In this document: positions 5,500-32,802 of the stretch, in pieces
How the letters are laid out: the number at the start of each line of letters is the position of its first letter
Numbering within the stretch: position 1 is the first letter of the stretch
Assembly (NCBI GenBank): GCA_949296605.1
Contig: CASFPB010000039.1
Coordinates: 7,766 to 71,765, forward strand
DNA from: an uncultured bacterium
GTDB taxonomy: Bacteria > Bacillota_I > Bacilli_A > RF39 > UBA660
Length of the DNA: 64,000 nt
Reading direction: 5' to 3'
Position numbers and translations under genes: made by a program
The notes under the pieces: model-generated
What the model saw: only the letters and a program-made list of their open reading frames with translations
Told to the model about the DNA's origin: nothing
Database searches by the model: none

Positions 5500-7215
5500 A
5501 TGGGAAGAACAACTTTTTTATTATTAGCTGTAGCATATTATATTTTAACTATAATAATAGTAATAATTGTTTTAAACTTAATAAATAGAAAGGAAAAAAA
5601 TAAATTAAAAAAGGAAATAGATAAATTAGAAACAGAAAAAAACTTAGTTATTTCAGCTAGTATGCTTTCTGAATTAAATAAAGTTGAAGCATTAGTTAAC
5701 AATGATGAAATGAAGGAAAAATTTGAAGACTGGAAAAAAAGATTTAATGATATTAAAGATATAGAAATGCCTAAAATAACAGATTCAATTAATGAAATTG
5801 AAGAATTGTATGAAGATCACAATTTTAAAGAACTAAAAGGTATGTTACTAAAAGTAGACTTTGATTTAAATAATTTGAAGACAAAAGCAAGTTTTTTATT
5901 AGAAGAAATAAAAGATGTAACATTAAGTGAAGAAAGAAATAGAGAAACAATTATAAAACTTAAAGCTCAATATAGAGATATTGTATCTACATACAAGGAC
6001 TATGAAAACGAATATGAACTTATAAAAACTCCCTTAGAATTGCAATTTGAAAATGTAGATAAATTATTTCATGCATTTGAAGTATCTATGGAACAAAATG
6101 CTTATACAGAAGTAGGAAAAATTGTTAAAGCAGTAGCTGATATCATAGACAATCTAAAAATAGTAATTGAAGAAACAAGACCAATAATAAATTTAGGGAA
6201 AAATTTAATACCTAAAAAAATAGAAGATATTAAAAATATCGCAGAAAAGATGACTAGGGAAGGGTATAATTTAGAATATTTAAATATAGATTACAACATA
6301 GAAGAAGCAAATAAAAAAATACAAGATATTTTTCAAAGATTAAATGTATTAAATATTGAAGACTCTTTATTTGAATTAAAAACAATGCATGATTACTTTG
6401 ATTCTTTATATAATGACTTTGACAAAGAAAAAATTAGCAAAAAGATTTATGAAGATTATAGTAGAAGCATATTAATTAAAGCAACAAAATTAGAAAAAAT
6501 AAATAATGAATTGTATAAAAAAATAGATGATATAAAATATAGTTATGATTTAAGTGATGATGAAGTGTCTGTTATTATCGAAATTAAAGAAGAAATAATG
6601 AATATTAGAGCAAGTTATGATAAAATAGTAGATATTGCTAGAAGCCATGTATTGTCATATTCAAAATTAGCAAAAGAAATGGAAAATATTAATAGTAAAT
6701 TGGTGAAAACTGAAGAAAAGTTAAATGGTGCATTAAAAAATTTAGGAAGCTTAAAAGAAGATGAATTAAGAGCTCGTGAACAACTTGAAGAAATTAAAAA
6801 GATATTAAATCAAACCAAGGAAAGAATCAGATCTTTTAAATTGCCAACAATACCTAAAAATTATTATGTTGAATTAGCTGAAGCTATGGAAGCAATAAAC
6901 GAATTGGTGAAAGCGTTAGATAAAAGGCCAATATCAATAAAAATATTAAATTTAAGGGTGGATACAGCAAGAGACTTAGTTTTAAAAGTATATAATACAA
7001 TAAATGAAACAATAAAAACTGCTAAAATGGCTGAAACTGCAATAGTATATGGAAATAGATATAGAGTAACTAATAAAGAAGTAGATTTTGGCCTAATTAA
7101 AGCAGAAAACAATTTTTTAAAAGGAAATTTTAAAAATAGTTTAGAAAATGCGATAAATGCAATAAATTTAGTTGAACCAGGAATATATAAAAGATTATTA
7201 GAAGAATATAGATAG
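5500..7215 (+). CDS. ezrA: Septation ring formation regulator EzrA
   Basis: Single N-terminal TM followed by ~540 aa of coiled coil. Size and layout match EzrA, and it lies upstream of nifZ-thiI. ATG at 5500 follows RBS taaggtga. Confidence 0.8.
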   Translation: MGRTTFLLLAVAYYILTIIIVIIVLNLINRKEKNKLKKEIDKLETEKNLVISASMLSELNKVEALVNNDEMKEKFEDWKKRFNDIKDIEMPKITDSINEIEELYEDHNFKELKGMLLKVDFDLNNLKTKASFLLEEIKDVTLSEERNRETIIKLKAQYRDIVSTYKDYENEYELIKTPLELQFENVDKLFHAFEVSMEQNAYTEVGKIVKAVADIIDNLKIVIEETRPIINLGKNLIPKKIEDIKNIAEKMTREGYNLEYLNIDYNIEEANKKIQDIFQRLNVLNIEDSLFELKTMHDYFDSLYNDFDKEKISKKIYEDYSRSILIKATKLEKINNELYKKIDDIKYSYDLSDDEVSVIIEIKEEIMNIRASYDKIVDIARSHVLSYSKLAKEMENINSKLVKTEEKLNGALKNLGSLKEDELRAREQLEEIKKILNQTKERIRSFKLPTIPKNYYVELAEAMEAINELVKALDKRPISIKILNLRVDTARDLVLKVYNTINETIKTAKMAETAIVYGNRYRVTNKEVDFGLIKAENNFLKGNFKNSLENAINAINLVEPGIYKRLLEEYR

Positions 7216-7225
7216 GATGTGTTTT

Positions 7226-7783
7226 ATGAAAAAGGTATTAATGATTTTAGTAATAATGTTATCATTTATAACTTTTATGCCCAAAGTTTATGCTTTAGAT
7301 TGTAACAATGGTAGTTGTTATTGTGATGAAAGCGGAGAAAATTGTGCAATTATGCGAAATCCAAGAGGAGAATATACTGTATTATCATCGGGAAGCAAAT
7401 GCGGATGTGATGGTGGTAATAGTATGTGCATAAAAACATCTGAAATATGGCAATTTGTTGGATATGGTTTATTTGCTATTAAAATAATAATTCCTTTAAT
7501 AATTATGGTTTTTGGAATGATTGATTTTACAAAAGCTGTAATGAGTGGAGATGACAAAACAATAAAAAGTGCCGGAGCGTCCCTTATAAAAAGATTAGTA
7601 TTATGTGCTTGTATATTTTTAATTCCGTCCGTTATATCATTGATATTTAAATTAGTTGATAATACATCAACTTTTGTTCAAGGAGCAGCACCCTGTGAAG
7701 AATGTTTAACTGATCCAACGGGAGAAACGTGTAAATCTTATGTTAATCAAGCAGAACAAGCAAGAAAAAATGGAGCAAATTAA
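7226..7783 (+). CDS. Small secreted Cys-rich protein with C-terminal two-TM hairpin module (paralogous module in 13370..14656)
   Basis: Signal peptide MKKVLMILVIMLSFITFMPKVYA and a Cys-rich segment, followed by AIKIIIPLIIMVFGMIDFTKAVMSGDDK...IFLIPSVISLIF...PCEECL... Confidence 0.75.
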   Translation: MKKVLMILVIMLSFITFMPKVYALDCNNGSCYCDESGENCAIMRNPRGEYTVLSSGSKCGCDGGNSMCIKTSEIWQFVGYGLFAIKIIIPLIIMVFGMIDFTKAVMSGDDKTIKSAGASLIKRLVLCACIFLIPSVISLIFKLVDNTSTFVQGAAPCEECLTDPTGETCKSYVNQAEQARKNGAN

Positions 7784-7785
7784 TT

Positions 7786-8913
7786 ATGATATATTTAGAT
7801 TATAGTGCAACAACACCAGTATCTTATGAAGTCTTAGATACTATTTCAAAAGTAACAAAAGAATTTATTGGAAATGCAAATTCATTACATGCATTAGGAC
7901 TTAAATCAGCAAATTTACTTGAAAGTGCAACCAAACAAATAGCTGATATTTATGGAATAAGTCCCAATGAAATTATTTATACAAGTGGTGCAACAGAAGC
8001 AAATAATATGGCTTTAATTGGAGTAGCAATGGCTAATCACAAAAAAGGAAAACATATAATTGTTTCAAAGTTAGAGCATCCATCGATATATGCAATATGT
8101 AATTATTTAAAAAGTATCGGTTTTGAAATAAGCTATGTTAACAATGATAAAGAAGGTTTAATTGATTTTGAAGATTTAAAAAATAAAATTAGAGAAGATA
8201 CAATTTTAGTAAGTATATGTGCAGTTAATTCTGAAACTGGAGTAAGACAACCTTTAAAGATGATTAGACAAATCATAAAAAAAGAAAATTTAGCAACAAT
8301 ATTTCATTCAGATATAACTCAAGCAGTAGGAAAAGTATCAATTAATTTTCATGATATAGATTTAGCTAGTATGTCTGCTCATAAAATATTTGGCCCAAAA
8401 GGAATAGGATTTTTATATAAAAGTAATATGATAAAAATTACACCTATTATATATGGAAGTGGTAAATTTAACGAATTAAAACCAGGAACACCACCACTTC
8501 CATTAATTGCAGCCTTATCAAAAGCAATAAGGTTAGCTAATACAGACTTAGAAAAAAGAGAAAGATTCGTAAATTTATTAAATATGAAAATTGTTAACTT
8601 TTTAGAAAAATATCCTGAAATTAAAATTAATAAAACTAAATATTCAATACCTCAAATACTAAATATTAGTATAATGAATATAATGCCTGAAACATTTTTG
8701 CATATGCTTGATAAACATGAGGTATATTTAAGTACTAATACTGCATGCTCAAGTGGTGAAATATCTAATAGTATAATGGCTATATATGATGATCCTAAAA
8801 GAGCTAAACATACAATAAGAATTAGTTTATCATATGTTACTACCACAGATGAAATAAATAAATTTTTAGAAATATTTAAAGAAGAATATGAAAATGCTAT
8901 ATCTATCAAATAG
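7786..8913 (+). CDS. nifZ: Cysteine desulfurase (class V aminotransferase), ThiI partner
   Basis: PLP-lysine motif SAHKIFGPKGIGFLY and NifS-like N-terminus IYLDYSATTP. Located immediately upstream of thiI. Confidence 0.85.
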   Translation: MIYLDYSATTPVSYEVLDTISKVTKEFIGNANSLHALGLKSANLLESATKQIADIYGISPNEIIYTSGATEANNMALIGVAMANHKKGKHIIVSKLEHPSIYAICNYLKSIGFEISYVNNDKEGLIDFEDLKNKIREDTILVSICAVNSETGVRQPLKMIRQIIKKENLATIFHSDITQAVGKVSINFHDIDLASMSAHKIFGPKGIGFLYKSNMIKITPIIYGSGKFNELKPGTPPLPLIAALSKAIRLANTDLEKRERFVNLLNMKIVNFLEKYPEIKINKTKYSIPQILNISIMNIMPETFLHMLDKHEVYLSTNTACSSGEISNSIMAIYDDPKRAKHTIRISLSYVTTTDEINKFLEIFKEEYENAISIK

Positions 8914-8921
8914 GGGGAAAA

Positions 8922-10112
8922 ATGAAAAAAATTATAATTATAAAATATGGAGAATTATCTACTAAAAAAGACAATATTAATTTTTTTATAAGTAAATTAA
9001 AAAATAATATATCATTAATATTAGAAAGTATAGAAAATGAAATAAGCTATGATTTTGGTAGAATGTTTATAAAAGTAAATGAAAATGATATAGATATTGT
9101 AGTTAATAAATTAAAAAAAGTTTTTGGAATATTAGAAATCATAATAGGTTATATAGATAATGAATTGGAAATAGAAAAAATAAAAAACAATACTCTTAAT
9201 TTAATAAGTGATAAGAATTTTAATACTTTTAAAGTTATAACTAAAAGAAGTGATAAAACATATCCAATTAATAGTATGGAAATTAACAATGTAATTGGAG
9301 GGTATTTACTTAAAAATATATCAAATATAAAAGTTGATGTTCATAATCCTGAATTATCAATAAATATAGAAATAAGAAAAAATGAAGTCTTGTATTATTT
9401 TAACGGAATAAAAGGACTTGGAGGATACCCAGTTGGAACATTAGGAAAAGGGCTTTTAATGTTAAGTGGTGGAATTGATTCACCAGTATCAGGCTATATG
9501 GCAATAAAAAGAGGGGTAAAAATTGAAGCAATTTATTTTGAAAGTCCACCTCATACAAGTGAAATGGCAAAAGAAAAAGTCATTAAATTAGCAAGAGTTT
9601 TATCGTATTATAATGCAGAAATTAAACTTCATATTATTAATTTTACAGAAATACAAGAAACAATACTTAAAAATATACCACATGATTATTTAATTACTAT
9701 AATGCGTAGAATGATGTATCGTATAAGTGCGATTATTGCTCACAATAATAAATGCAATATATTAATTAATGGCGAATCAATTGGACAAGTAGCAAGTCAA
9801 ACATTAACTAGCATGCGGGCTATAAATGAAGTAATAAAAATGCCAGTAATAAGACCATTAGCATGTTTTGATAAATTAGAAATTATAAAAATGGCAAAAG
9901 AAATACAAACATATGATATAAGCACTTTGCCGTTTGAAGATTGTTGCACAATATTTGTTCCAAAACATCCAGTTATAAATCCAAGTTTGAGTAAATGTGA
10001 GGAATATGAAAAGTTAATTCCTTATAAAGAATTGATACATAAAGCCATTAAAAATCATGAAGTATTAATTATAAAAGAAAAAATGGAAAATAAATATCAA
10101 GATTTGTTATAG
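8922..10112 (+). CDS. thiI: tRNA 4-thiouridine synthase / sulfur carrier ThiI
   Basis: THUMP-like N-terminal half and PP-loop LLMLSGGIDSPVSGY. Length is 396 aa. Confidence 0.9.
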   Translation: MKKIIIIKYGELSTKKDNINFFISKLKNNISLILESIENEISYDFGRMFIKVNENDIDIVVNKLKKVFGILEIIIGYIDNELEIEKIKNNTLNLISDKNFNTFKVITKRSDKTYPINSMEINNVIGGYLLKNISNIKVDVHNPELSINIEIRKNEVLYYFNGIKGLGGYPVGTLGKGLLMLSGGIDSPVSGYMAIKRGVKIEAIYFESPPHTSEMAKEKVIKLARVLSYYNAEIKLHIINFTEIQETILKNIPHDYLITIMRRMMYRISAIIAHNNKCNILINGESIGQVASQTLTSMRAINEVIKMPVIRPLACFDKLEIIKMAKEIQTYDISTLPFEDCCTIFVPKHPVINPSLSKCEEYEKLIPYKELIHKAIKNHEVLIIKEKMENKYQDLL

Positions 10113-21317: not shown

Positions 21318-21404
21318 AATAAAAAAAGATAACTAAAAAGTAAATAACCGAAAAGTGTTCATTTGACTATATCTTGCATATATTTAATTAGGAAGGTGAT
21401 TTAC

Positions 21405-21941
21405 GTGTCTAGTTATAAAGAAATAGTTACAAAAGCAGTAATAGGTAAAGCTAAAAAGACCAGTAGCAATAAATTTTCTTTAACCCCAGAAGAAATTCCA
21501 AATACTGTTTTAGGTTGTTGGGTAATTAATCACAAATTTAATGGCAGTAAGAATGCTAAAGGAAGTGTTTTAGTTAATGGTTCATTTGATGTAAATGTTT
21601 GGTATTCATATGACTCTGATAAAAAGACTGCTGTAACAACTCAAACTTTTACTTATAGTGATGTTATGAATGTTCCACTTAAAGAAGATCGCAATATGCA
21701 AGATGCATCAGAAATAATTGTTAGATGCTTAAAACAACCCACAGTTTCCAATGTAAAAATAGAAAATAATGTTGTAAGCCTAGATGTCGAAAAAGAAATG
21801 GGTGTAGAAATTGTAGGGGATACAAAAGTGAAAGTTAGTGTGGAAGAAGACGAAGATGATTATGAAGAAATTTTTGATGAACAAGAACTTGATGAAATTA
21901 AAGACATAAACGAAAATTATTTAAATGAAGCATCCGAATGA
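21405..21941 (+). CDS. cotE: Spore coat morphogenetic protein CotE
   Basis: GTG at 21405 follows RBS ggaaggtga. SSYKEIVTKAVIGKAKK...GCWVINHKF...DVNVWYSY...VEIVGDTKVKV plus an acidic tail is colinear with B. subtilis CotE as I recall it. Confidence 0.8.
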   Translation: MSSYKEIVTKAVIGKAKKTSSNKFSLTPEEIPNTVLGCWVINHKFNGSKNAKGSVLVNGSFDVNVWYSYDSDKKTAVTTQTFTYSDVMNVPLKEDRNMQDASEIIVRCLKQPTVSNVKIENNVVSLDVEKEMGVEIVGDTKVKVSVEEDEDDYEEIFDEQELDEIKDINENYLNEASE

Positions 21942-22673: not shown

Positions 22674-25600
22674 ATGGAACAAATATTTTGGGATAACTTC
22701 AAAAATACAGATAAATTATTAATTTTAGATTATGTAGGTAGGCTGCCACTGATATACCAAAAAGCATTACAGGATTGCTATGGTGAAGATTATAATGAAT
22801 TATTAAAAAAGGGAGTTAAACTTATTGATGCCAAAAAAGCTATAAAAAAAATTAATTATTTAATTAATAATCCTAATTATTATGTGCGTGCAACAAATTA
22901 TAATTCAGCTAAAAATTTAAATGGAGAAATAACAGTAAGTGGTGGTAAGCAAAAAGAAGTATATTTAAAAGAAAAAATAAATTGTGATGAAAGCATTTTA
23001 AAAAGAATATCAATAATTTTTAGATTAAATCCAGAATTTAAAATTTTGTATAAATATTTCGGTATAAATTTAGACAAAAGTATTGATGAATTTGAATTGC
23101 CAAGAGAAGATTATGAAACATTAAAAAAACTTTATAAGAATCTTAATGATTTTATAAGTAATAAATCAATTTTAATAAGAAACATTTTAGGTTTAACATA
23201 TAGTGAATTTGTATCTTATTTTGAAAAAGAATTAACGACAAATCCAAAATTAAAAAAATTAAAAAAGCTATGTAAAAAGACCATAATTACTGAGCCTATA
23301 AACTTATTGGATATAGATGATAAAACATTTTTAAGTATAATTAAATGTATTTATTGTTTAAAACCAAATATATTAGTGAATCAAATACTTGCAAATAATA
23401 AATTTAATATTACGTTACAAGAGTTCTTAGATGCAAATGAAAAAGAAATGGATTTTATATTATCCAAAAATGAAAATACTGATGTAGGTAACACTTTAAA
23501 AAATTTATGGCAAGACGATTACACAAAATTATGTATTGATAAAAATAATGATTCTATAAACGAATTAGTAACGATATTAAATGTTCTAATTAATGATTTA
23601 TTTTCATATAGATATTTAATTAAAGTTAAAACATTACAAGAAATATTGGAAGCAACAGAAGAAGAAATAGATTTTTTAAAAAATAATTTATCAAAAGAAA
23701 CATCTTCATATAAAATTATTTCAAAAGTATTTGGAAGTAACTTTAGAGGAACAAATGAGTTAAGATATATGTTGCATGGCAAAGATAATGAAGCATATCA
23801 TAATGCATTATTAAATTTGAAATTAAAACTAAGTAATTATAGAAATGGAAAATCTAGAAAATTTAAAACATTACAAGAATTATTAGGGGCATCAGAAGAA
23901 GAAATAGATTTTTTAAAAAAATATATTAATGATAATTATGAAAAATTTGCTATTATTATTAAAGTCTTTGGGAAAGAATTAAATGGGACAAATGAATTTT
24001 ATAAATATTTAAGCGCCGAAGAAAAAGTAGCATATTCTGAAAAAATTCATATTTTAAGAATAAATTTACAAAAGTTTAGAACAGGAAAATTACATGAATA
24101 TAAAAAATTAAAAGATATATTAAATGTATCAGAAGAAGAAATAGAACACATAAAAAAATACTATCCTAAAACAACAAAAGGCTATCAAATTTTATTAAAA
24201 GTATTTGGAGAAAATTTGGATAATGATGACTCATTATACTGTAATTTATTAGACAAAGAAAAAAATTTATATCGATATACATTGCAAGCTTTAAATATGT
24301 TTTTAAAAGATGGCATTAAAAAATATAAAACTTTACAAGAAATACTTGAAGCAACAGAAGAAGAAATGGAATTTTTAAAACAAAAATATCCTAAAAATAC
24401 AAAAAATTATATTTTGCTTATAAAAGTATTTGGAAATAATTTTGAAAATTCAAATTATAATTATGACAAACTAAATGGGGACGAAAAGAAAAAATACAGA
24501 AGTGCTTTAAAATCAATAAGGAAATTTTTAGAAAAACATAGAAAAAATTTAATAAAAAATGGTAAAACATTAGCCGAAATAATAAAAATATCACCAGAAG
24601 AAATTGAATATATAAAACAACAATATCCTAAAAATACAAAAAACTATAAAATTATAGTTAAGGTATTTGGCATAGAATTAAAGGACACAAATAAAAAATT
24701 AAATTATTTAACCAACGAAGAAAGAAAAACCTACTATAACGCTCTAAATTGCTTAAAAAGATTTATTAAAAGAAGTGAAACAAAGTGTAAACCTAAAACT
24801 TTACAAGAGTTATTAAATGCAACAGAAAAAGAAATAGATTTTTTAAATAAAAAAATATCTAAAAAAACAAAGACTTATACTATATTATCAAAAGTATTTG
24901 GTAATGATTTTAAAAAAACAAATGAATGTTATGATAGTTTAACAACACTAGAAAAAAGAACTTTTTCACAGACAATAATAAGATTAAAAAGCCTTTTAGA
25001 AAAATACAGAGAAACAAAGAAATTTGATTTTAAAACACTTTCCCAAATATTAGGCGCGACAAAAGAAGAAATAGAATTTTTGATGGATGAAACAGATAAA
25101 AGTTCAAAAATTTACAAAGTGATTTTAAAAGTATTTGGAGAGGATTTTGAAGGAACTAACGAAAAGAAGTTTTTATTAAATAATGAAGAAAAAAAGACAT
25201 ATAATAATGCAATATCATCATTAAAAGCTAGATTAAAAAATTATAGGAAAAATAAAAATATTAAATATAAAACTTTACAAGAAATACTTGAAGCAACAGA
25301 AGAAGAAATAGACTTTTTAAGTGAAATTACTCCTAAAAAAACTAAAAATTATGTTGTTCTTGTTAAAGTTTTTGGAGAAAGTTTTAAAGGAACAAATGAA
25401 CTATGTGAACAACTAACTGATGAAGAGAAGGTAACTTATTTTGCAGCAATAAAATCATTATCAGTAAGGCTAAAAAAATATCGTGACAATGGAAAAGATT
25501 ATAAAACCTTGCAAGAAATACTAAATGCAACAGATGAAGAAATAGAATATCTAAATGAAATTTATCCACAAAATACAAGAAGTTATCAATTTTTGGTAAG

Positions 25601-26081
25601 TATGTTTGGAATTGATTTTAGAAATATAGGAAATTTGAATAAATTATCTAGTGAAGCAAATATGTTGTTAAATGATACGATAGCAATATTACAAACATAT
25701 TTATGTATGCAAAGAGAAAATACGAAAGATGGAAATTTACAACAAATCGAAACAGAAGGCCCTGTTGAAATTTTAACAAGTAAAGAATATACAACGGTGG
25801 AAACACCATTTAAACATCCATTTTTTAAAGAATTTTTAATATTACTACCTATTGAATATCAATATATTACAGCATTAAGATTAGGTTTAGTATATGATGA
25901 AAAAATTCATTCCATTGAAGAATTAGCGGAAATATTTAATATTGATATTGAAACCGCAAGAAAAAGATGTTTAAAAGGAATAAACATATTTATATTAATA
26001 ATTGAAAAATATAAAGAATTGTATAATCAAAACATCCCCAATATTGATGCGCTAATAGAAAACATAAAATTAGTTTTATAG
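22674..26081 (+). CDS. Giant helical-repeat protein (1135 aa), sigma-less paralog: FW-x-NF linker module, degenerate repeats, 9 clear ~75-79 aa repeats, C-terminal sigma-region-4-like HTH
   Basis: Uninterrupted 3.4-kb ORF with RBS aaagga. The repeat consensus is KTLQEILxATEEEIxFLK..Y.IL.KVFG..F..TN.....L..EEK..Y..A...L...L..YR. The C-terminus reads TPFKHPFFKEFLILLPIEYQYITALRLGLVYDEKIHSIEELAEIFNIDIETARKRCLKGI. Confidence 0.85.
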   Translation: MEQIFWDNFKNTDKLLILDYVGRLPLIYQKALQDCYGEDYNELLKKGVKLIDAKKAIKKINYLINNPNYYVRATNYNSAKNLNGEITVSGGKQKEVYLKEKINCDESILKRISIIFRLNPEFKILYKYFGINLDKSIDEFELPREDYETLKKLYKNLNDFISNKSILIRNILGLTYSEFVSYFEKELTTNPKLKKLKKLCKKTIITEPINLLDIDDKTFLSIIKCIYCLKPNILVNQILANNKFNITLQEFLDANEKEMDFILSKNENTDVGNTLKNLWQDDYTKLCIDKNNDSINELVTILNVLINDLFSYRYLIKVKTLQEILEATEEEIDFLKNNLSKETSSYKIISKVFGSNFRGTNELRYMLHGKDNEAYHNALLNLKLKLSNYRNGKSRKFKTLQELLGASEEEIDFLKKYINDNYEKFAIIIKVFGKELNGTNEFYKYLSAEEKVAYSEKIHILRINLQKFRTGKLHEYKKLKDILNVSEEEIEHIKKYYPKTTKGYQILLKVFGENLDNDDSLYCNLLDKEKNLYRYTLQALNMFLKDGIKKYKTLQEILEATEEEMEFLKQKYPKNTKNYILLIKVFGNNFENSNYNYDKLNGDEKKKYRSALKSIRKFLEKHRKNLIKNGKTLAEIIKISPEEIEYIKQQYPKNTKNYKIIVKVFGIELKDTNKKLNYLTNEERKTYYNALNCLKRFIKRSETKCKPKTLQELLNATEKEIDFLNKKISKKTKTYTILSKVFGNDFKKTNECYDSLTTLEKRTFSQTIIRLKSLLEKYRETKKFDFKTLSQILGATKEEIEFLMDETDKSSKIYKVILKVFGEDFEGTNEKKFLLNNEEKKTYNNAISSLKARLKNYRKNKNIKYKTLQEILEATEEEIDFLSEITPKKTKNYVVLVKVFGESFKGTNELCEQLTDEEKVTYFAAIKSLSVRLKKYRDNGKDYKTLQEILNATDEEIEYLNEIYPQNTRSYQFLVSMFGIDFRNIGNLNKLSSEANMLLNDTIAILQTYLCMQRENTKDGNLQQIETEGPVEILTSKEYTTVETPFKHPFFKEFLILLPIEYQYITALRLGLVYDEKIHSIEELAEIFNIDIETARKRCLKGINIFILIIEKYKELYNQNIPNIDALIENIKLVL
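23628..25740 (+). repeat. Nine in-frame tandem coding repeats, period 225-237 nt
   Basis: Unit starts (K-T-L codons) fall at 23628, 23865, 24102, 24327, 24564, 24795, 25032, 25269 and 25503. A 47-nt perfect direct repeat occurs at 24321-24367 and 25263-25309. Confidence 0.9.
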
Positions 26082-26093
26082 AAAGGAGGATAA

Positions 26094-29000
26094 ATGAAAA
26101 ATAGTATTTTATTATATCAGCTTATGCAAGAATATGGTTTTTATAATAAATCAAGTGAATTTTATATTGAAATTATAAAAAAATATGAAATAAATGGCGA
26201 AGTTAATAGACAAGACATAATAAAAATTAGAGAAAGTATATTAAAAAAAATAAAAGGGGATATAAAGAATTTAAATATTGATTGGCTTATAAAGTTGTTC
26301 TTAAAAGTTAAAACGTTAAGTGATTTATCAAAGTTATTAAATTTATTAAATAAATATAATATAGTTTTAGATTTTAGTTTAATTGAAAATTTAATAAATA
26401 ATAATTCGCAAGTTGATGCTTTAATATTTAACTTTTTAAAAAAAGGAAAAAATATAACAATTTCATATATAGATAGAATTAGTGATAATGAGTTAGTAAC
26501 TGAACTTTTAATTGCCTATGCAACTATAAAAAATATCTTAACAAATGAATCAGAAAAAGAAGCAAACGAATATTATGAAGATGAAACTAAAAATTCTAAA
26601 ATTGATGATTCAATAGGCATGTATTTAAAAGAAATAGGTAGCATACCATTATTATCAAAAGAAGAAGAACTTGAATTATTTAAAAAGATAGAAATGGGCA
26701 GTAAACAAGCAAAAGATAGAGTAATTGAAGCAAATTTACGTCTAGCAGCTTCTATTGCCAAAAAATATTTGAACAAAGGTTTAGGGCTACAAGACCTTAT
26801 TCAAGAAGGAAATATAGGGATTATGAAGGCAGTAGAAAGGTTTGATTATAAGAAGGGATACAAATTTTCTACTTACGCAACTTGGTGGATTAGACAAACT
26901 ATTACAAGGGCAATAAGTGAACAATCTAGAACAATTAGAGTGCCAGTTCATATGAGTGAAGATATAAAAAACTTACATATAGCTAAAAATAATTTATCAA
27001 TTAAGCTAAATAGAGAACCAACTATTGAGGAAATTGCAGAAGTATTAAACATGACTTCAGATAAAGTATTAGAAATAATTAGATTTGACACAGAAACATC
27101 AACAGCATCATTAAATGCTACAGTTGGTGATGAAGATGATTCAGAGCTAGGGAATTTCATTGAAGATACTTTTTTTGAATCGCCAACAAAAACATTTGAA
27201 CAAAAAGATTTAAGTATTAGATTAAATGAAATGCTTAATGAGTTAAAAGATAGAGAAAAATCGGTTATAATGTATAGATTTGGTTTAATAAATGGAAAAC
27301 CTTATACACTTGAGGAAATAGGTATAATATTTAATGTTACAAGAGAAAGAATAAGGCAAATAGAAGCAAAGGCATTAAGAAAATTAGGTAACCCTGTAAG
27401 AGCTAAAAAAATAAAAGATTATTATGAATTTGAAGATGTTGATTGCAGAATATCAAAAGGATTTTGGAATAATTTTGCACATTATACAAAAGATATTGTT
27501 TTTTTAATAATTGATAATGATCTTGAAGAAAATTTAAAAAATGCACTATATGGAGTTTTCGGAAAAGATTTATCAAAAGTAAAAATTAAAAATTCAAGTG
27601 AAACAACAAAAGCAATAGAAGCAATTGAAGCAATTAAAACAATTTTAAAAACAAAAGATCAAAGTCAATACGAAATAACTTTACAAGAATATTTAAAAGC
27701 AACCGATGAAGAATATGAAAATTTAAAAAAGATTATTATATGTTCTTCTTACTGTGAAATATTATCAGAATTATTTGGTAGTAATTTTGATCAACCAAAA
27801 TCAGGTATAATAGCATCGCCAAGTAATGAGGCAACTTATTATAATATTGCATTTTGTTATTTAAAAAATTGTTTAAATAAACGATGCGAAGTTCTACCTG
27901 AATTTAGATTAGGAACGCTACAGGAGATACTTAATGCAAGCAAAGAAGAAATAAAATATTTAAAAGATAGCGTATTAAGTAAAACGGCTAACCGTTCTAT
28001 AATAATAAAAGTTTTTGGAAATAACTTAGATCAAATAAATTCAGGTTATTATGAATTAGAATATAGTGAAAAAAATAAATATTTTAAATCTATTTCGTAT
28101 TTAAAAAAAGAATTAACTAATTACAGAAAATTAAATTCAAGTAATAATATAACTTTGCAAGAAATACTAAATGCAACTGATGAAGAAATGTTATTTATAA
28201 AATGTAAAATTATAAATGATTCTTATTTTCAAATAATATTAAGAGTTTTTGGAAATGAATTAAATCAAACAAATAAAAGCTTTAATGAATTAAGCGAAGA
28301 AGAAAAAATAGAATATAATAAATGTATAAGAAGTTTAAAAGACAAAATACGAGGATTTAGAGTATTTAACAATAATAGAAGAAATTTGCAAAAGTATTTA
28401 AACGCATCTGATGAAGAAATGGTTTATTTAAATCAAACGTATATAGCTTCAGCAAAATTAAAAAATATTATCTATGGAATATATGGTGAAAATTTAAACG
28501 AATTTAACGTTTATTTTTACGCTAGCTTATCTGATAAAGAGTTATTTAATTATAGTTCATTTATAACAAATTTGCAAAAAAAATTAGAAAAACATCGCCA
28601 TGAGCAAAAAGATTGTAAAACTATTCAAGAACTTTTAGAACTATCAAATGAAGAATTAGAATTAATTAGACTTTATTATATAAATAAATCAGATAGATAC
28701 CAAATATTAATAGAAGTATTCGGAGAAAATTTAGACCAAACAAATAAAATAGTTTGTTCATTTAATAATCATAAAAATCAAACCTATAATAACGCTTTAA
28801 ATGATTTAAGAAAAACAATAAAAACGCATAGAGAAATAGTAGGCGTTGGAAAAACTATTTTTGAAATTTTAAATATGTCAATTGACGAATTTAATTTGAT
28901 TAAACAAAACTTTTCACAAAATTTTGCAAATTTTAATGTTTTAATAAAAGTATTTGGGGATAATTTTGATAAAACCGATGAAAACTATCATAATTTATCA

Positions 29001-29699
29001 ATTGAAGAAAAAGTAGAATATATTAAAGCATTAGAAGAGTTTACTAATTGTTTGATATCTGTTAGAACATACAAAACTAAACATCAAACATTACAAGAAA
29101 TACTGGGAGCTACAGAAGAAGAAATAGCATTTATAAAAGATAATTATCCACAAAATACAAAAAATTATGATATTTTAGTCAAAGTCTTTGGCATAGATTT
29201 CACAAATAATAATTATAATCTAACTGAATTAAATGATTTTGAGAAAGGTCAATACTACCGAGCAATAAATTGTTTAAGAAAATATTTAAAAAATTATAGG
29301 AAAGGTAAAAATAAATTACCTAAAAAAGAAGAGTCAAAATTACCAAATGATACTACTAAAATAGATAAACAAGATGACATAGAATATTTGGATGCATTAC
29401 CTGATATAAATTTAAATGAAATTAAAACACCTTTTACGCATCCATATTTTCAAGAATTTATTAATATTTTACCAGAAGAGTATCGTATTATAACTGCTAA
29501 AAGAATGGGATTAAGTGATGGTTGCATCCATTCTTTAACAAGCCTAGCAAAAGAATTTAAAATAAGTCCAAAAGAAGCTTATGATAAATGCGAAAATGGT
29601 ATAGCATTATTTATATTTATAGTTAAAACATACCAAACCACATTTAATAAAGAATTACCAATTTTAGATTTAGATATGTTATTAAAACGTCTTATATAA
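26094..29699 (+). CDS. Giant sigma-70 fusion protein (1201 aa): novel N-domain + complete SigA/RpoD-like regions 1.2-4.2 + 7 helical repeats + second, C-terminal sigma-region-4-like HTH
   Basis: Strong RBS aaaggagga, 12 nt after the upstream stop. The sigma core (nt ~26604-27427) has [77 protein letters not shown] and [28 protein letters not shown]. It is then followed by ~760 further aa. Confidence 0.88.
27675..29320 (+). repeat. Seven in-frame tandem coding repeats, period 231-237 nt
   Basis: The T(L/I)Q-E-I-L codon anchors fall at 27678, 27915, 28152, 28383, 28620, 28854 and 29088. The unit is the same as in 22674..26081. Confidence 0.85.
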
Positions 29700-29702
29700 A
29701 AA

Positions 29703-30395
29703 TTAAATATTTTTGTTTTTAATAAATTCAGTGAGCATTTTAGTAAGTGCTCTTTTTTCAATTCTAGAAACATAACTTCTAGATATTTTTAACTCTTTTG
29801 CTATTTCTTTTTGCGTCATTTCCTTAGTATTAAATAATCCATATCTTTTAACTATAATTTCTTTTTCTCTATCATTTAAAAGATTTAGATATTTATTTAA
29901 TAAATTAATATTGTTTTTAATTTCAAGTTGGTCAAATAAATCTTTATCCTTATCTTTTATTACATCTATTAAGCTTATTTCATTTCCATCTTTATCATAC
30001 CCAATAGCATCATTTAAACTAACAGTAACATTAACATGTTTATTAGCTCTAAAATGCATTAATAATTCATTTTGAATACATCTAGCAGCATAAGTAGTAA
30101 TTTTTGTTTTTTTATCATTATTATATGTATCAATTCCTTTAATAAGACCAATAGTTCCAATACTTATTAAATCATCAGTATCAACATCTTTGGTATCAAA
30201 CTTTTTAACTATATGTGCAACCAAACGTAAATTGTGCTCAATAAGTTTATTGCGAGAATTCTTATCTCCATTTAACATATCATTTATACATTTTTCTTCT
30301 TCTATAGCATTAAGTGGTTCAGGAAAAACATTATTAGAATAGCTTCCTGTAAAAAATAACATATCTTTAATAATATTAAACAAATTAAATAACAT
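29703..30395 (-). CDS. sigK: Sporulation sigma factor K precursor (pro-sigma-K), uninterrupted
   Basis: YSNNVFPEPLNAIEEEKCI..GDKNSRNKLIEHNLRLVAHIVKKF..DDLISIGTIGLIKGIDTY..TYAARCIQNELLMHFR matches SigK rather than SigE (HNLRLVAHIVKKF). It carries a ~20-aa hydrophobic pro-sequence. The ATG at 30395 follows RBS agaggtg; the track start 30401 is a GTG inside the RBS. Confidence 0.85.
   Translation of the reverse strand: MLFNLFNIIKDMLFFTGSYSNNVFPEPLNAIEEEKCINDMLNGDKNSRNKLIEHNLRLVAHIVKKFDTKDVDTDDLISIGTIGLIKGIDTYNNDKKTKITTYAARCIQNELLMHFRANKHVNVTVSLNDAIGYDKDGNEISLIDVIKDKDKDLFDQLEIKNNINLLNKYLNLLNDREKEIIVKRYGLFNTKEMTQKEIAKELKISRSYVSRIEKRALTKMLTEFIKNKNI
29733..29758 (+). terminator. Plus-strand intrinsic terminator for the giant-repeat operon, embedded in the 3' coding end of sigK (opposite strand)
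   Basis: Stem gagca(t)(29733-29738)/(g)tgctc(29747-29752) followed by a 6-T run (29753-29758). Confidence 0.5.
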
Positions 30396-30419
30396 AAACA
30401 CCTCTATACTTTATTTTAT

Positions 30420-30474: not shown

Positions 30475-32802
30475 ATGGATATAAGTGTGATTGTAGAAAA
30501 ATTAAGTGAAGAATTTTCTTTTTACAATAAACCATACGAATATTATTTTAAAATATGTAATGAAATATTATGTGATGATGCAAATTTAATGTATAAATTT
30601 TGTTATGAAAAAGTAGTTTTAGATATAAAAAACGATTGGAAAAGTTTAAAAATTGGTTGGTTTATTGCAATATTTAAAGAAAATTTAAATGGAATGTTAG
30701 AAATATTAACTAAATTTGGATTAGTGATAGATAATACTAATTTTAAGCAAATTATAAAAAAATATCCTGATTTTGAAAATGTTTTAAGTGATTTAGTAGA
30801 AAATGATGCTTACTTAGATGAAAATGAAACATTAAAAAAACTAATTAAATTATACTTAAGTTATACAGAAAGCAAAATGAAAAATAAACAAGATAAGGAT
30901 ATATTATTGTGGGAAGAACAATTAGAAATATTTAAGATTTTAAAAGAATTAAGTAAAGAACCAGAAAAAAATAAAACTTTCATAGCTTATTATTATGATT
31001 TACTAGTAGAGCAATATAAAAATTTTGTTCGATCCCTAATACCAAAATATGAACAAGAAAAAGTAGAATATGATGATTTAGTTCAAGAAGGATTCATTGG
31101 ATTAATTAATGCAATTAGAAATTTTGATTATACAAAGGGTTATAAATTTTCATCATATGCTTATGTTGTTATAAAAAACGTTATTAGGAAATACATAAAT
31201 AAAAACATTAGATCAATAAGAATTCCTGATTCAATGTTAAACGATTATTTTAGAATAATATATACTCAAAGAGATTATTATATGTTAAATGGAAAAGAAG
31301 CAAGCGAAGAAAAACTATCAGAAATGTTAGGTATGTCAATAGAAAAAATTAGAAATGTTTTAATGTGCTGTGAAGATACAATATCATTATATGATTCTTT
31401 GGGTAGGGGACCAGAAGAAGCAGAATATACTTTATTATGTGCAATAAAAAATGAATCGTCCCCATTACCAGATGAAATATATGAAAGAAAACAAATAAAT
31501 TTGATGATAGAAGAATTGTTTAGTGTTTTAACAGGCATTCAAAGAAAAGTAATTGAACAATATTTTGGATTTTATAATCAAAAACCTAAATCAATTCAAA
31601 ATATAGCAGATGAACTTGGTTGTTCAAGAGAAAATATAGATCAAATAAGAAGTAATGCATTAAAACGAATGAGAAAACACCTAGCTGATAAAAAGAATAA
31701 TGATTTAAATACCTTTAGTAAATTTTCGTTAAATACAAATTATTTTTGGTATAACTTTATAGGCTTTAAAAAGTCAGATGTATTAGAAGCTATAAACGAA
31801 CTTGTAAATGAAAAAAAATTAAGTGAATTAGAGCAAAAATCCTTAATTGATAGATTTGGTAAAAAATATAATTTATTAAATAAAGTAGATGAAGAAACAA
31901 TAAAAGTTGTTAGTGTATCTATAGAAAAGATAAAAGAAAAACTTCTTGAAATACGAAAACGAAAATCGATGTTAAAAACAAAGATTGAAATAGGTAGTTT
32001 AATGGATATTTTAGATGCAACGATTGATGAAATAAAATATCTTAGATCAACTAGGAAAAAAGATAGTAAAAGCATAAATTTACTTACTAGATTATTTAAT
32101 GATGATTTTTTAAGAGAAGGATTAATACCAGTTTATTTAAGTAAAACTGAATTAAGAACTTATTATTCTGCTATAAGTGCATTAAGAGAATCATTAAAAC
32201 TTTATAGAAAAAAAGAAGAAACTAAAAGATATTACTTTGGCTTAACATTAAAACAAATATTAAATATAACTACTGAAGAAATTGAATTTTTAAAAAGAAC
32301 AATTAATCCTAAATCTGCTTATTATTCAGTATTAACTAAATGTTTTGGAACTTCATTAGAAGAAGAAAATAAAAATGAAAAATTGGATGAAAAAGAATTA
32401 AAATTATTAAAAATTGCTATAAGCAAAATGGAAGTATTAATTTTTTATTATAGAGAAGAAGAAACTAAAAGACTATTAAAAATCTATAGCTATTTTAACA
32501 TGCCTGAAGAAACTAATGAAAAAGTTGTTACACCATTTAGCAACCCAAGATTTAAATTGTTTATTCAATGCTTACCTGATGAGCTACAAATTATAACAGC
32601 GATGAGAATCGGAGCTGATAATGGCGTTATTAAATCGATATTTGAAATTGCAATGTATTTAAATGAAGATGAAGAAGAAGTAAGAAGAAAATGTGAAATA
32701 GGAATAAATTTGTTTAAAACGTTAGTAAGTGAATATAAAAATGAGTATGAAAATGATTTTGAAACATTTTTAATACAAAGTAGAAAAAAATACGGTAAAT
32801 AA
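30475..32802 (+). CDS. Giant divergent sigma-70 fusion protein (775 aa): N-domain paralogous to 26094 gene + divergent sigma regions 2-4 + FW-x-NF linker + 2 repeats + C-terminal sigma-region-4-like HTH
   Basis: RBS ggggga upstream. Region 2 reads DDLVQEGFIGLINAIRNFDYTKGYKFSSYAYVVIKNVIRKYI, where the Trp dyad is replaced by VV. Region 4 reads LTGIQRKVIEQYFGFYNQKPKSIQNIADELGCSRENIDQIRSNALKRMRKHL. The C-terminus reads TPFSNPRFKLFIQCLPDELQIITAMRIGADNGVIKSIFEIAMYL. Confidence 0.85.
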   Translation: MDISVIVEKLSEEFSFYNKPYEYYFKICNEILCDDANLMYKFCYEKVVLDIKNDWKSLKIGWFIAIFKENLNGMLEILTKFGLVIDNTNFKQIIKKYPDFENVLSDLVENDAYLDENETLKKLIKLYLSYTESKMKNKQDKDILLWEEQLEIFKILKELSKEPEKNKTFIAYYYDLLVEQYKNFVRSLIPKYEQEKVEYDDLVQEGFIGLINAIRNFDYTKGYKFSSYAYVVIKNVIRKYINKNIRSIRIPDSMLNDYFRIIYTQRDYYMLNGKEASEEKLSEMLGMSIEKIRNVLMCCEDTISLYDSLGRGPEEAEYTLLCAIKNESSPLPDEIYERKQINLMIEELFSVLTGIQRKVIEQYFGFYNQKPKSIQNIADELGCSRENIDQIRSNALKRMRKHLADKKNNDLNTFSKFSLNTNYFWYNFIGFKKSDVLEAINELVNEKKLSELEQKSLIDRFGKKYNLLNKVDEETIKVVSVSIEKIKEKLLEIRKRKSMLKTKIEIGSLMDILDATIDEIKYLRSTRKKDSKSINLLTRLFNDDFLREGLIPVYLSKTELRTYYSAISALRESLKLYRKKEETKRYYFGLTLKQILNITTEEIEFLKRTINPKSAYYSVLTKCFGTSLEEENKNEKLDEKELKLLKIAISKMEVLIFYYREEETKRLLKIYSYFNMPEETNEKVVTPFSNPRFKLFIQCLPDELQIITAMRIGADNGVIKSIFEIAMYLNEDEEEVRRKCEIGINLFKTLVSEYKNEYENDFETFLIQSRKKYGK
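31996..32480 (+). repeat. Two in-frame copies of the helical repeat unit (period ~249 nt)
   Basis: SLMDILDATIDEIKYLRS...LLTRLFNDDF... and TLKQILNITTEEIEFLKR...VLTKCFGTSL... Confidence 0.7.

Follow-up and report, generated by a model that had tools for sequence, protein, structure and literature searches.

Region 4 of sigma factors (sigma-4), among the most thoroughly studied domains in bacterial transcription, recognizes the −35 box and fastens sigma to the β-flap; many activators and anti-sigma factors target it. Some ECF sigma factors are regulated in cis by C-terminal extensions (ECF41/42), and the extensions of ECF41/ECF42-type factors have SnoaL-like or TPR folds on group-4 cores. Common to ECF41- and ECF42-type factors and the proteins described here is the concept of a conserved element appended to the C-terminus of a sigma factor, with a possible effect on the sigma core in cis. 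Unlike those extensions, the element described here is sigma-4-derived, and it is carried on group-1/2-like cores (regions 1.2, 2, 3, and 4) or on SigK/E-like ones; the RpoD-like cores and the sigma-4-derived extension rule out an ECF sigma factor with a SnoaL/TPR-type extension. A second comparison is offered by the region-4 array proteins of uncultured low-GC bacteria (P0038, P0039, P0045, and P0130), which likewise stack sigma-4-type modules, some on a sigma core and some not. The repeats of these arrays are full copies of region 4, most of them basic, that Pfam recognizes; in the proteins considered here the helix–turn–helix (HTH) has been lost from the internal repeats, and the terminal copy alone is full. 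Literature searches turned up no account of additional region-4 copies in sigma factors, nor of the present architecture.

At this locus, a second copy of region 4 ends a tail made of sigma-4 fragments, with the fold kept, the charge of its DNA-reading helix inverted, and a degree of conservation equal to that of the sigma core. In uncultured low-GC bacteria, hundreds of protein clusters have the same cassette, on differing sigma cores or on none. We assign a probability of roughly 60% to the joint reading that this C-terminal domain (CTD) is derived from sigma-4 and docks onto protein, as opposed to reading the −35 box.

The window—the 64,000-nucleotide stretch of DNA that was analyzed as a whole—encodes three giant proteins, P0001 (22674–26081, +; 1135 aa), P0002 (26094–29699, +; 1201 aa), and P0003 (30475–32802, +; 775 aa), whose open reading frames are flanked by rpsP/KH-domain genes and polA. 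P0002 and P0003 are sigma-bearing paralogs with RpoD-like cores: A Pfam scan matched regions 1.2, 2, 3, and 4 in P0002, and regions 2 and 4 above threshold in P0003, with region 3 borderline. P0001 is the sigma-less paralog; the scan of the full-length protein returned neither a sigma domain nor any family-level Pfam match, and NCBIfam gave no match either. An earlier note on this DNA had proposed that each sigma-bearing paralog carries region-4-type domains hundreds of residues apart, and the Pfam matches do place a genuine region 4 well ahead of the CTD in both. That of P0002 is RpoD-type sigma-70 region 4 (residues 381–431; 27234–27386, +; PF04545, E = 8.1e-18) and that of P0003 is genuine but divergent (residues 349–401; 31519–31677, +; PF04545, E = 6.9e-12); from region 4 to the CTD is a distance of about 690 residues in P0002 and about 300 in P0003.

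The CTDs make up the last 90–92 residues of the three open reading frames. They lie on the forward strand at 25803–26078 in P0001, where the four-helix core (FFKEF...GINIF) occupies about 25821–25991; at 29427–29696 in P0002, the copy modeled by AF2; and at 32530–32799 in P0003, which was modeled by AF2 along with its two repeats. Translation of these coordinates reproduces exactly the three C-terminal peptides that the earlier note had quoted, and the homology that it saw among the giant proteins is confirmed by pairwise BLASTP (P0001 vs. P0002, 45% identity, E = 1e-24; P0001 vs. P0003, 43%, E = 1e-17; P0002 vs. P0003, 39%, E = 2e-18). A profile built from the three CTDs finds just these three copies across the 1.16-Mb genome and one to four in most genomes of the same genus, where the copies are almost always C-terminal in open frames of 500–1300 aa. 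Word-indexed homologue searches returned only relatives at ≥90% identity.

Standard domain models do not recognize the CTD. The Pfam scoring of the last ~90 residues that the earlier note had proposed (Sigma70_r4, r4_2, and LuxR-type GerE, by hmmscan) gave no match at E ≤ 10 for the three isolated window CTDs, and with Sigma70_r4 just 2 of 14 members of the CTD family reach E 0.03. A LuxR/GerE HTH (PF00196) was set aside on the same grounds, there being no GerE match on the window CTDs or on the 14 family members. The silence of Pfam, together with the fast evolution of the tail overall, speaks for reading the CTD as a decaying, functionless relic of a duplication, or for its likeness to sigma-4 being the convergence of a generic HTH. 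We consider either version very improbable, in part on the evidence of profile–profile comparison. By hhalign, 38 aligned CTDs match 30 genuine region-4 segments along 64 columns (probability 97.4%, E = 1.4e-11); the match spans regions 4.1–4.2 and has all four helices in register. Independent 14-row alignments of the CTD and region 4 match with 96.6% probability (E = 6.3e-10), and the match is gone in controls in which the region-4 alignment is reversed or column-shuffled (probability ≤0.3%).

Searches with single profiles lead to the same family from several directions. When a 14-sequence CTD profile is run against the six-frame open reading frames of this genome, the canonical RpoD (369 aa) supplies the best non-self match, with its region 4 aligned to profile positions 31–75 (E = 5.5e-5); P0002's own region 4 scores 16 bits against the CTD profile. 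The three-CTD profile also matches RpoD region 4 in other families of the class. In reverse, a profile of the 30 genuine region-4 segments recovers a number of the genus's CTDs (E from 3e-5 to 1e-3) and the window's three CTDs as weak matches, and one CTD is matched at 8e-5 even when the query is region 4 of just one RpoD, taken from another family. Against PDB sequences the CTD profile has 28 matches at E ≤ 10, of which 26 are sigma region 4 (best, 1tty, E = 0.015), mostly in one register that places query positions 31–75/79 on the region 4.1–4.2 segment. An exhaustive hmmsearch of 1.84 billion representative proteins with the CTD yields 363 matches at E ≤ 1e-3, among them P0038, P0039, and P0045 at about 3e-16, which Pfam annotates as multi-copy Sigma70_r4 at 1e-30 to 1e-49; such proteins are 600–1700 aa long, and the strong matches carry 7–16 Pfam-grade copies of Sigma70_r4 per protein (Pfam E 6e-30 to 1e-63). 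We are highly confident that the CTD is genuinely homologous to sigma-4, though diverged from it.

Structure prediction points the same way. The AF2 model of the P0002 CTD, from a 14-row alignment, has a mean pLDDT of 80.7, rising to 90–95 in the core blocks, with helices at residues 24–30, 35–45, 55–61, 66–91, and 100–107, the last being a short terminal helix. The two AF2 input alignments were shallow (14 and 24 rows) because the genome-contig scan gave seven loci and the metagenome scan only two. In the predicted fold, H1–H2 are region 4.1 and H3–turn–H4 is the HTH of region 4.2. The earlier note had also called for a structure prediction, and here the outcome is positive: When this model is compared with the PDB by Foldseek, every one of the 42 best matches is a sigma region 4, with 1ku7, 1rio, 6ono, and 4g6d among the matches. 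Target-normalized TM scores against isolated sigma-4 chains are mostly 0.4–0.8, reaching 0.79, and the rmsd is 1.3–3.3 Å where Foldseek aligns the CTD domain alone (52–72 columns); E-values are just about 0.02, as is usual for a domain of ~60 residues. In a library of viral structures, the CTD matches mostly region-4 domains of phage sigma factors. The stand-alone sigma-4-like proteins YlxM/p13 (UPF0122, PDB 1s7o) and LuxR/GerE HTH domains have the same HTH superfold as the CTD but are weaker matches than sigma-4, without a family-level sequence match; 1s7o is among the lower Foldseek matches, at rank 43. That the structural neighbors are sigma-4 and not other HTH classes is a further point against convergence.

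The earlier note's description of the CTD as a sigma region-4-like HTH holds for homology and for fold, and fails in the Pfam profile test that it had itself suggested. The layout of regions 4.1–4.2 that it recognized in the motif pattern is borne out by the profile–profile comparison, AF2/Foldseek, the PDB profile matches, and the exhaustive search. It had named the lack of any significant profile or structure match as the result that would speak against a sigma-4-like domain; at the level of profile HMMs a match is indeed lacking, and at the level of structure it is not.

Relative to sigma-70 region 4 (PF04545; 1ku3, 1ku7, 1tty, and 6ono), the CTD has the same four-helix fold and register and shares the L-P/x-x-E junction between H1 and H2, the R-(L/F/Y)-G-L turn, a (D)G, and a third helix of the form S/T-hydrophobic-x-E-I/V-A/G, followed by the HTH turn. 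Unlike region 4, it does not come directly after region 3 and the 3.2 linker but ends a tail of 300–690 residues or a sigma-less protein. It also lacks conserved recognition residues of the R584/E585/R586/R588/Q589 type, is net acidic, and falls below the Pfam thresholds (PF04545/PF08281). Its recognition helix, H4, is about 10 residues longer, and there are two extra motifs: H1 is preceded by a strongly conserved TPFKHPFF, and the C-terminal end forms a short helix or tail that is likewise conserved (Y...F.FP.LDGES...L). Because it misses the Pfam threshold, does not keep the recognition residues, and is not placed after region 3, we set the CTD apart from ordinary members of region 4.

The conservation of the CTD bears on whether it is a relic. 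In P0002 it is 49–53% identical to its closest counterparts in the genus and 33–39% identical to the more distant paralogs compared. The corresponding identities of P0002 to genus relatives are 35–52% in the sigma core, 20–27% in the repeats, and 22–34% in the N-terminal domain. Comparison with the sister species gives the CTD a dN/dS of 0.23 in P0002 and 0.15 in P0003, from small substitution counts, and among 150 representative proteins its position is nearly always terminal. On these sequence comparisons, the CTD is under purifying selection, equals the sigma core in conservation, and is better conserved than the rest of the tail. Such conservation, the dN/dS of 0.15–0.23, and a terminal position kept in over a hundred representative proteins all count against a functionless duplicate.

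The tail that precedes the CTD is built of ~80-aa repeats. P0001 has 11 of them (22962–25721, +), 2 degenerate and 9 clear; P0002 has a head module and seven repeats (27474–29306, +); and P0003 has two repeats (31996–32460, +). For the P0003 repeats, AF2 predicts in each a short helix, two 10-residue helices that resemble region 4.1, and one helix of ~30 residues. The model of both P0003 repeats with the CTD (276 residues) has a mean pLDDT of 87.6 and a pTM of 0.45, and because of this pTM the arrangement of the domains relative to one another is uncertain; Foldseek aligns the 276-residue model to whole sigma factors in long, high-rmsd alignments that are uninformative on the repeat fold. Direct comparison of the repeat with region 4 or with the CTD by hhalign is not significant (0.8% and 5.9%). 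A link between the repeat and region 4.1 appears only by way of an intermediate. Shorter relatives from the exhaustive search (430–530 aa) consist of a SigK/E-like core, one module in the middle (the mid module), and the CTD. This mid module matches the H1–H2 part of region 4.1 (...EEID.ML.KLT.EEK.LI.LRYG.DL) with 95.9% probability (E = 5e-9) and the window repeat over its whole length with 94.8% (E = 5e-8), while the reversed controls give <1%. As the mid module aligns to both region 4.1 and the repeat, the tail is a series of modules derived from region 4.1, with a single, complete sigma-4-like domain as its cap. The intervening ~80-aa repeats are derivatives of region 4.1 that have lost the HTH. 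The earlier note's two region-4-type domains per sigma-bearing paralog are both present, and its count is too low, since the intervening repeats are also region-4.1 derivatives.

The cassette of head, repeats, and cap is found on RpoD-like cores (P0002 and P0003), on SigK/E-like cores in other bacteria, or alone (P0001). P0001 starts with the head module that comes after region 4.2 in its paralogs, and a sigma-less copy of the tail is present in several genomes. Some 368-aa open reading frames that the CTD profile matches in relatives were considered as RpoD but proved to be short tail proteins without a sigma core. The tail is not covered by any model of Pfam or NCBIfam.

Whether the cap still reads DNA was judged from its recognition helix and charge. 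Residue equivalences follow the hhalign register in E. coli sigma-70 numbering, and the residues of the recognition helix that contact the −35 box in sigma-70 (PDB 1ku7) are R584, E585, R586, R588, and Q589. The equivalent of R584 is Glu in 20 of 38 CTDs (53%) and that of R586 is Glu in 24 of 38 (63%). The E585 equivalent is E/N/D, and the equivalents of R588 and Q589 are the most variable columns of the CTD core (1.23 and 0.91 bits). Mean net charge of the core is −1.8 in the CTD vs. +3.6 in genuine region 4 of the same organisms, and it is 0 or below in 32 of the 38 CTDs; in the window, the CTDs of P0001, P0002, and P0003 have core charges of −2, −1, and −3, and the sigma-4 of P0002 has +4. 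The recognition-helix segment is the least conserved part of the CTD (1.90 bits per column), whereas in genuine region 4 it is the most conserved (3.44 bits per column). The face that corresponds to region 4.1 is kept, with its LRLGxYDG motif and hydrophobic H1/H2, and H1 and the H2–H3 loop are at least as conserved as their region-4 counterparts. The R-L-G-L motif (equivalents of R562-F563-G564-I565), which bears on binding of the β-flap tip helix, is also kept; this motif is structural as well. Given Glu at the R584 and R586 equivalents, an acidic core, and a drifting recognition face, DNA reading of the −35 type has most likely been lost.

The same residues weigh on a rival reading in which the CTD still binds DNA as a functional HTH but is specific for something other than the −35 box. 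From the end of a long helical spacer it would make a distal second promoter contact, so that recognition is bipartite, and P0001 would be a free-standing binder of the same sites. The intact HTH geometry that AF2 predicts with high confidence is in its favor, as is the presence, among the closest structural matches, of sigma-4 bound to −35 DNA (1ku7 and 1rio). Basic R/K clusters are kept mid recognition helix in P0001 (ARKRCLKG) and P0003 (VRRKCEIG); the variability of the recognition helix could itself mean that the paralogs differ in DNA specificity. The related arrays of P0038, P0039, and P0130, with their Pfam-grade basic copies of region 4, look DNA-competent. LuxR/GerE-type HTH proteins, moreover, bind DNA although their recognition helices begin Ser-Glu. 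Several features count against DNA binding: Glu at the positions that correspond to R584 and R586, a core charge that is not above 0 in most members, and a recognition helix that is the least conserved part of the domain, with its R588 and Q589 equivalents the most variable of all. These features weaken the earlier note's suggestion of bipartite DNA contacts, and we rate the DNA-binding reading as unlikely, though the main rival. Taken on its own, docking of the CTD in preference to DNA binding has in our estimate an even chance or slightly better.

In the docking reading, which we favor, the diverged region-4 duplicate caps a tail of ~80-aa modules derived from region 4.1 and would serve as a protein-docking module, a mimic of sigma-4. 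Candidate partners of the cap are the β-flap tip of RNA polymerase, a regulator directed at sigma-4, or the basic face of a genuine sigma-4. Its action would be in cis for P0002 and P0003, and in trans for P0001. A more specific version takes the tail as a portable sigma-4-mimic cassette, a repeat rod derived from region 4.1 with a charge-inverted cap that docks either on the β-flap tip or on a genuine sigma-4, at the basic face of the latter, so that carriers and free proteins of the P0001 type compete for, bridge, or block polymerases; we offer this version tentatively and rate it as unlikely.

The earlier note had raised autoinhibition by an intramolecular sigma-4 mimic as its other possibility. 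The acidic recognition face of the CTD would then pair with the basic face of sigma-4 or fill its β-flap site, keeping P0002 and P0003 inactive until a signal frees the tail, and P0001 would inhibit in trans. Complementary charges (−1 to −3 in the CTD cores vs. +4 in the sigma-4 of P0002) and the sigma-less tail copy of several genomes fit this proposal, and it has a precedent of a kind in the cis-acting extensions of ECF sigma factors. A spacer of 300–690 residues of rigid-looking helical repeats would be needless for simple autoinhibition, however, and the acidic positions are conserved at just the 50–65% level. We judge it improbable, more so than DNA binding and less so than decay or convergence.

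The consequences differ among these readings. If the cap is a sigma-4 mimic that docks onto protein, it would provide a new way to regulate or tether RNA polymerase, and if the portable cassette is real, mimicry of sigma domains by sigma domains would add a layer of transcription control for which we found no description. If the CTD binds DNA, P0002, P0003, and their like would be sigma factors that carry a second promoter reader within the same chain.

A role in anti-phage defense was considered through MzaA, the sigma factor of the MZA system. The NCBIfam MzaA model scores 323 bits, over the sigma domain only, against a full-length cut-off of 800 bits; PADLOC matches cover residues 204–445 only, with none on P0001. 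Because PADLOC and the MzaA model match the sigma core alone, the defense reading was dropped.

The genome that contains the window (on contig C39) belongs to a gut bacterium and comprises 1.16 Mb in 52 contigs, with 23% G+C and ~94% completeness. The related loci come from metagenome-assembled genomes (MAGs) labeled "uncultured Bacilli bacterium" or "Candidatus Onthocola stercoravium," placed by NCBI in Bacilli incertae sedis. Sigma region 2 is matched nine times in the genome, including the canonical 369-aa RpoD, which is encoded on another contig. The window also encodes CotE and SigK, and sigK (29703–30401, −; 232 aa) lies between P0002 and P0003. In most of the loci examined from the genus, a sigma gene of ~235 aa adjoins the giant genes.

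Sigma region 4.1 gave rise to the ~80-aa repeats found in the three giant proteins (P0001, 22962–25721; P0002, 27474–29306; P0003, 31996–32460). This relationship is visible only via an intermediate "mid module" taken from shorter relatives, which profile comparison linked to region 4.1 at 95.9% and to the ~80-aa repeat at 94.8%; reversed controls of these comparisons scored <1%.

Among the representatives recovered by the exhaustive C-terminal-domain profile search, P0051, P0060, and ~15 similar proteins form a 430–530-aa family in which a SigK/E-like core is fused to a single mid module and to the same cap, the C-terminal sigma-4-like domain of the giant proteins. The P0051 cluster has 37 members, and the contigs that carry them reach 535 kb. 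The tail cassette is therefore not restricted to RpoD-type cores. The same search returned P0038, P0039, P0045, and P0130, proteins of 600–1700 aa from uncultured bacteria that are made of 7–16 Pfam-grade Sigma70_r4 copies; some of the four embed a sigma core, and none is named in any source.

Divergence along P0003 is patchy. Relative to the sister-species gene (L023:9386–11731), synonymous divergence is 0.37 in the cap (32461–32799) vs. 0.045 in the sigma part, both based on small substitution counts, an unevenness that points to recombination or gene conversion within the tail. In the genuine region 4 of P0003 (31519–31677), region 4.2 reads CSRENIDQIRSNALKRM where the RpoD type has another 17-residue sequence, so its −35 specificity should, as predicted from these residues, differ from that of both P0002 and RpoD.

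The window organism seems to be a very reduced spore former. Its 1.16-Mb genome (23% G+C) retains CotE (21363–21941), SigK (29703–30401), and several more short sigma factors in the size range of sporulation sigmas, with nine region-2 matches in all.

Further arrangements of the cap occur within the genus. At locus L047, an 856-aa paralog (7142–9709) ends in two tandem sigma-4-like caps (residues 649–747 and 748–856), and a 1147-aa paralog carries an additional region-4-like domain within its repeat array (residues 652–737). Two related genomes encode short, 368-aa sigma-less proteins that carry three repeats and the cap (L037:2281–3384; L038:1884–2987), from genes outside the giant-sigma locus.
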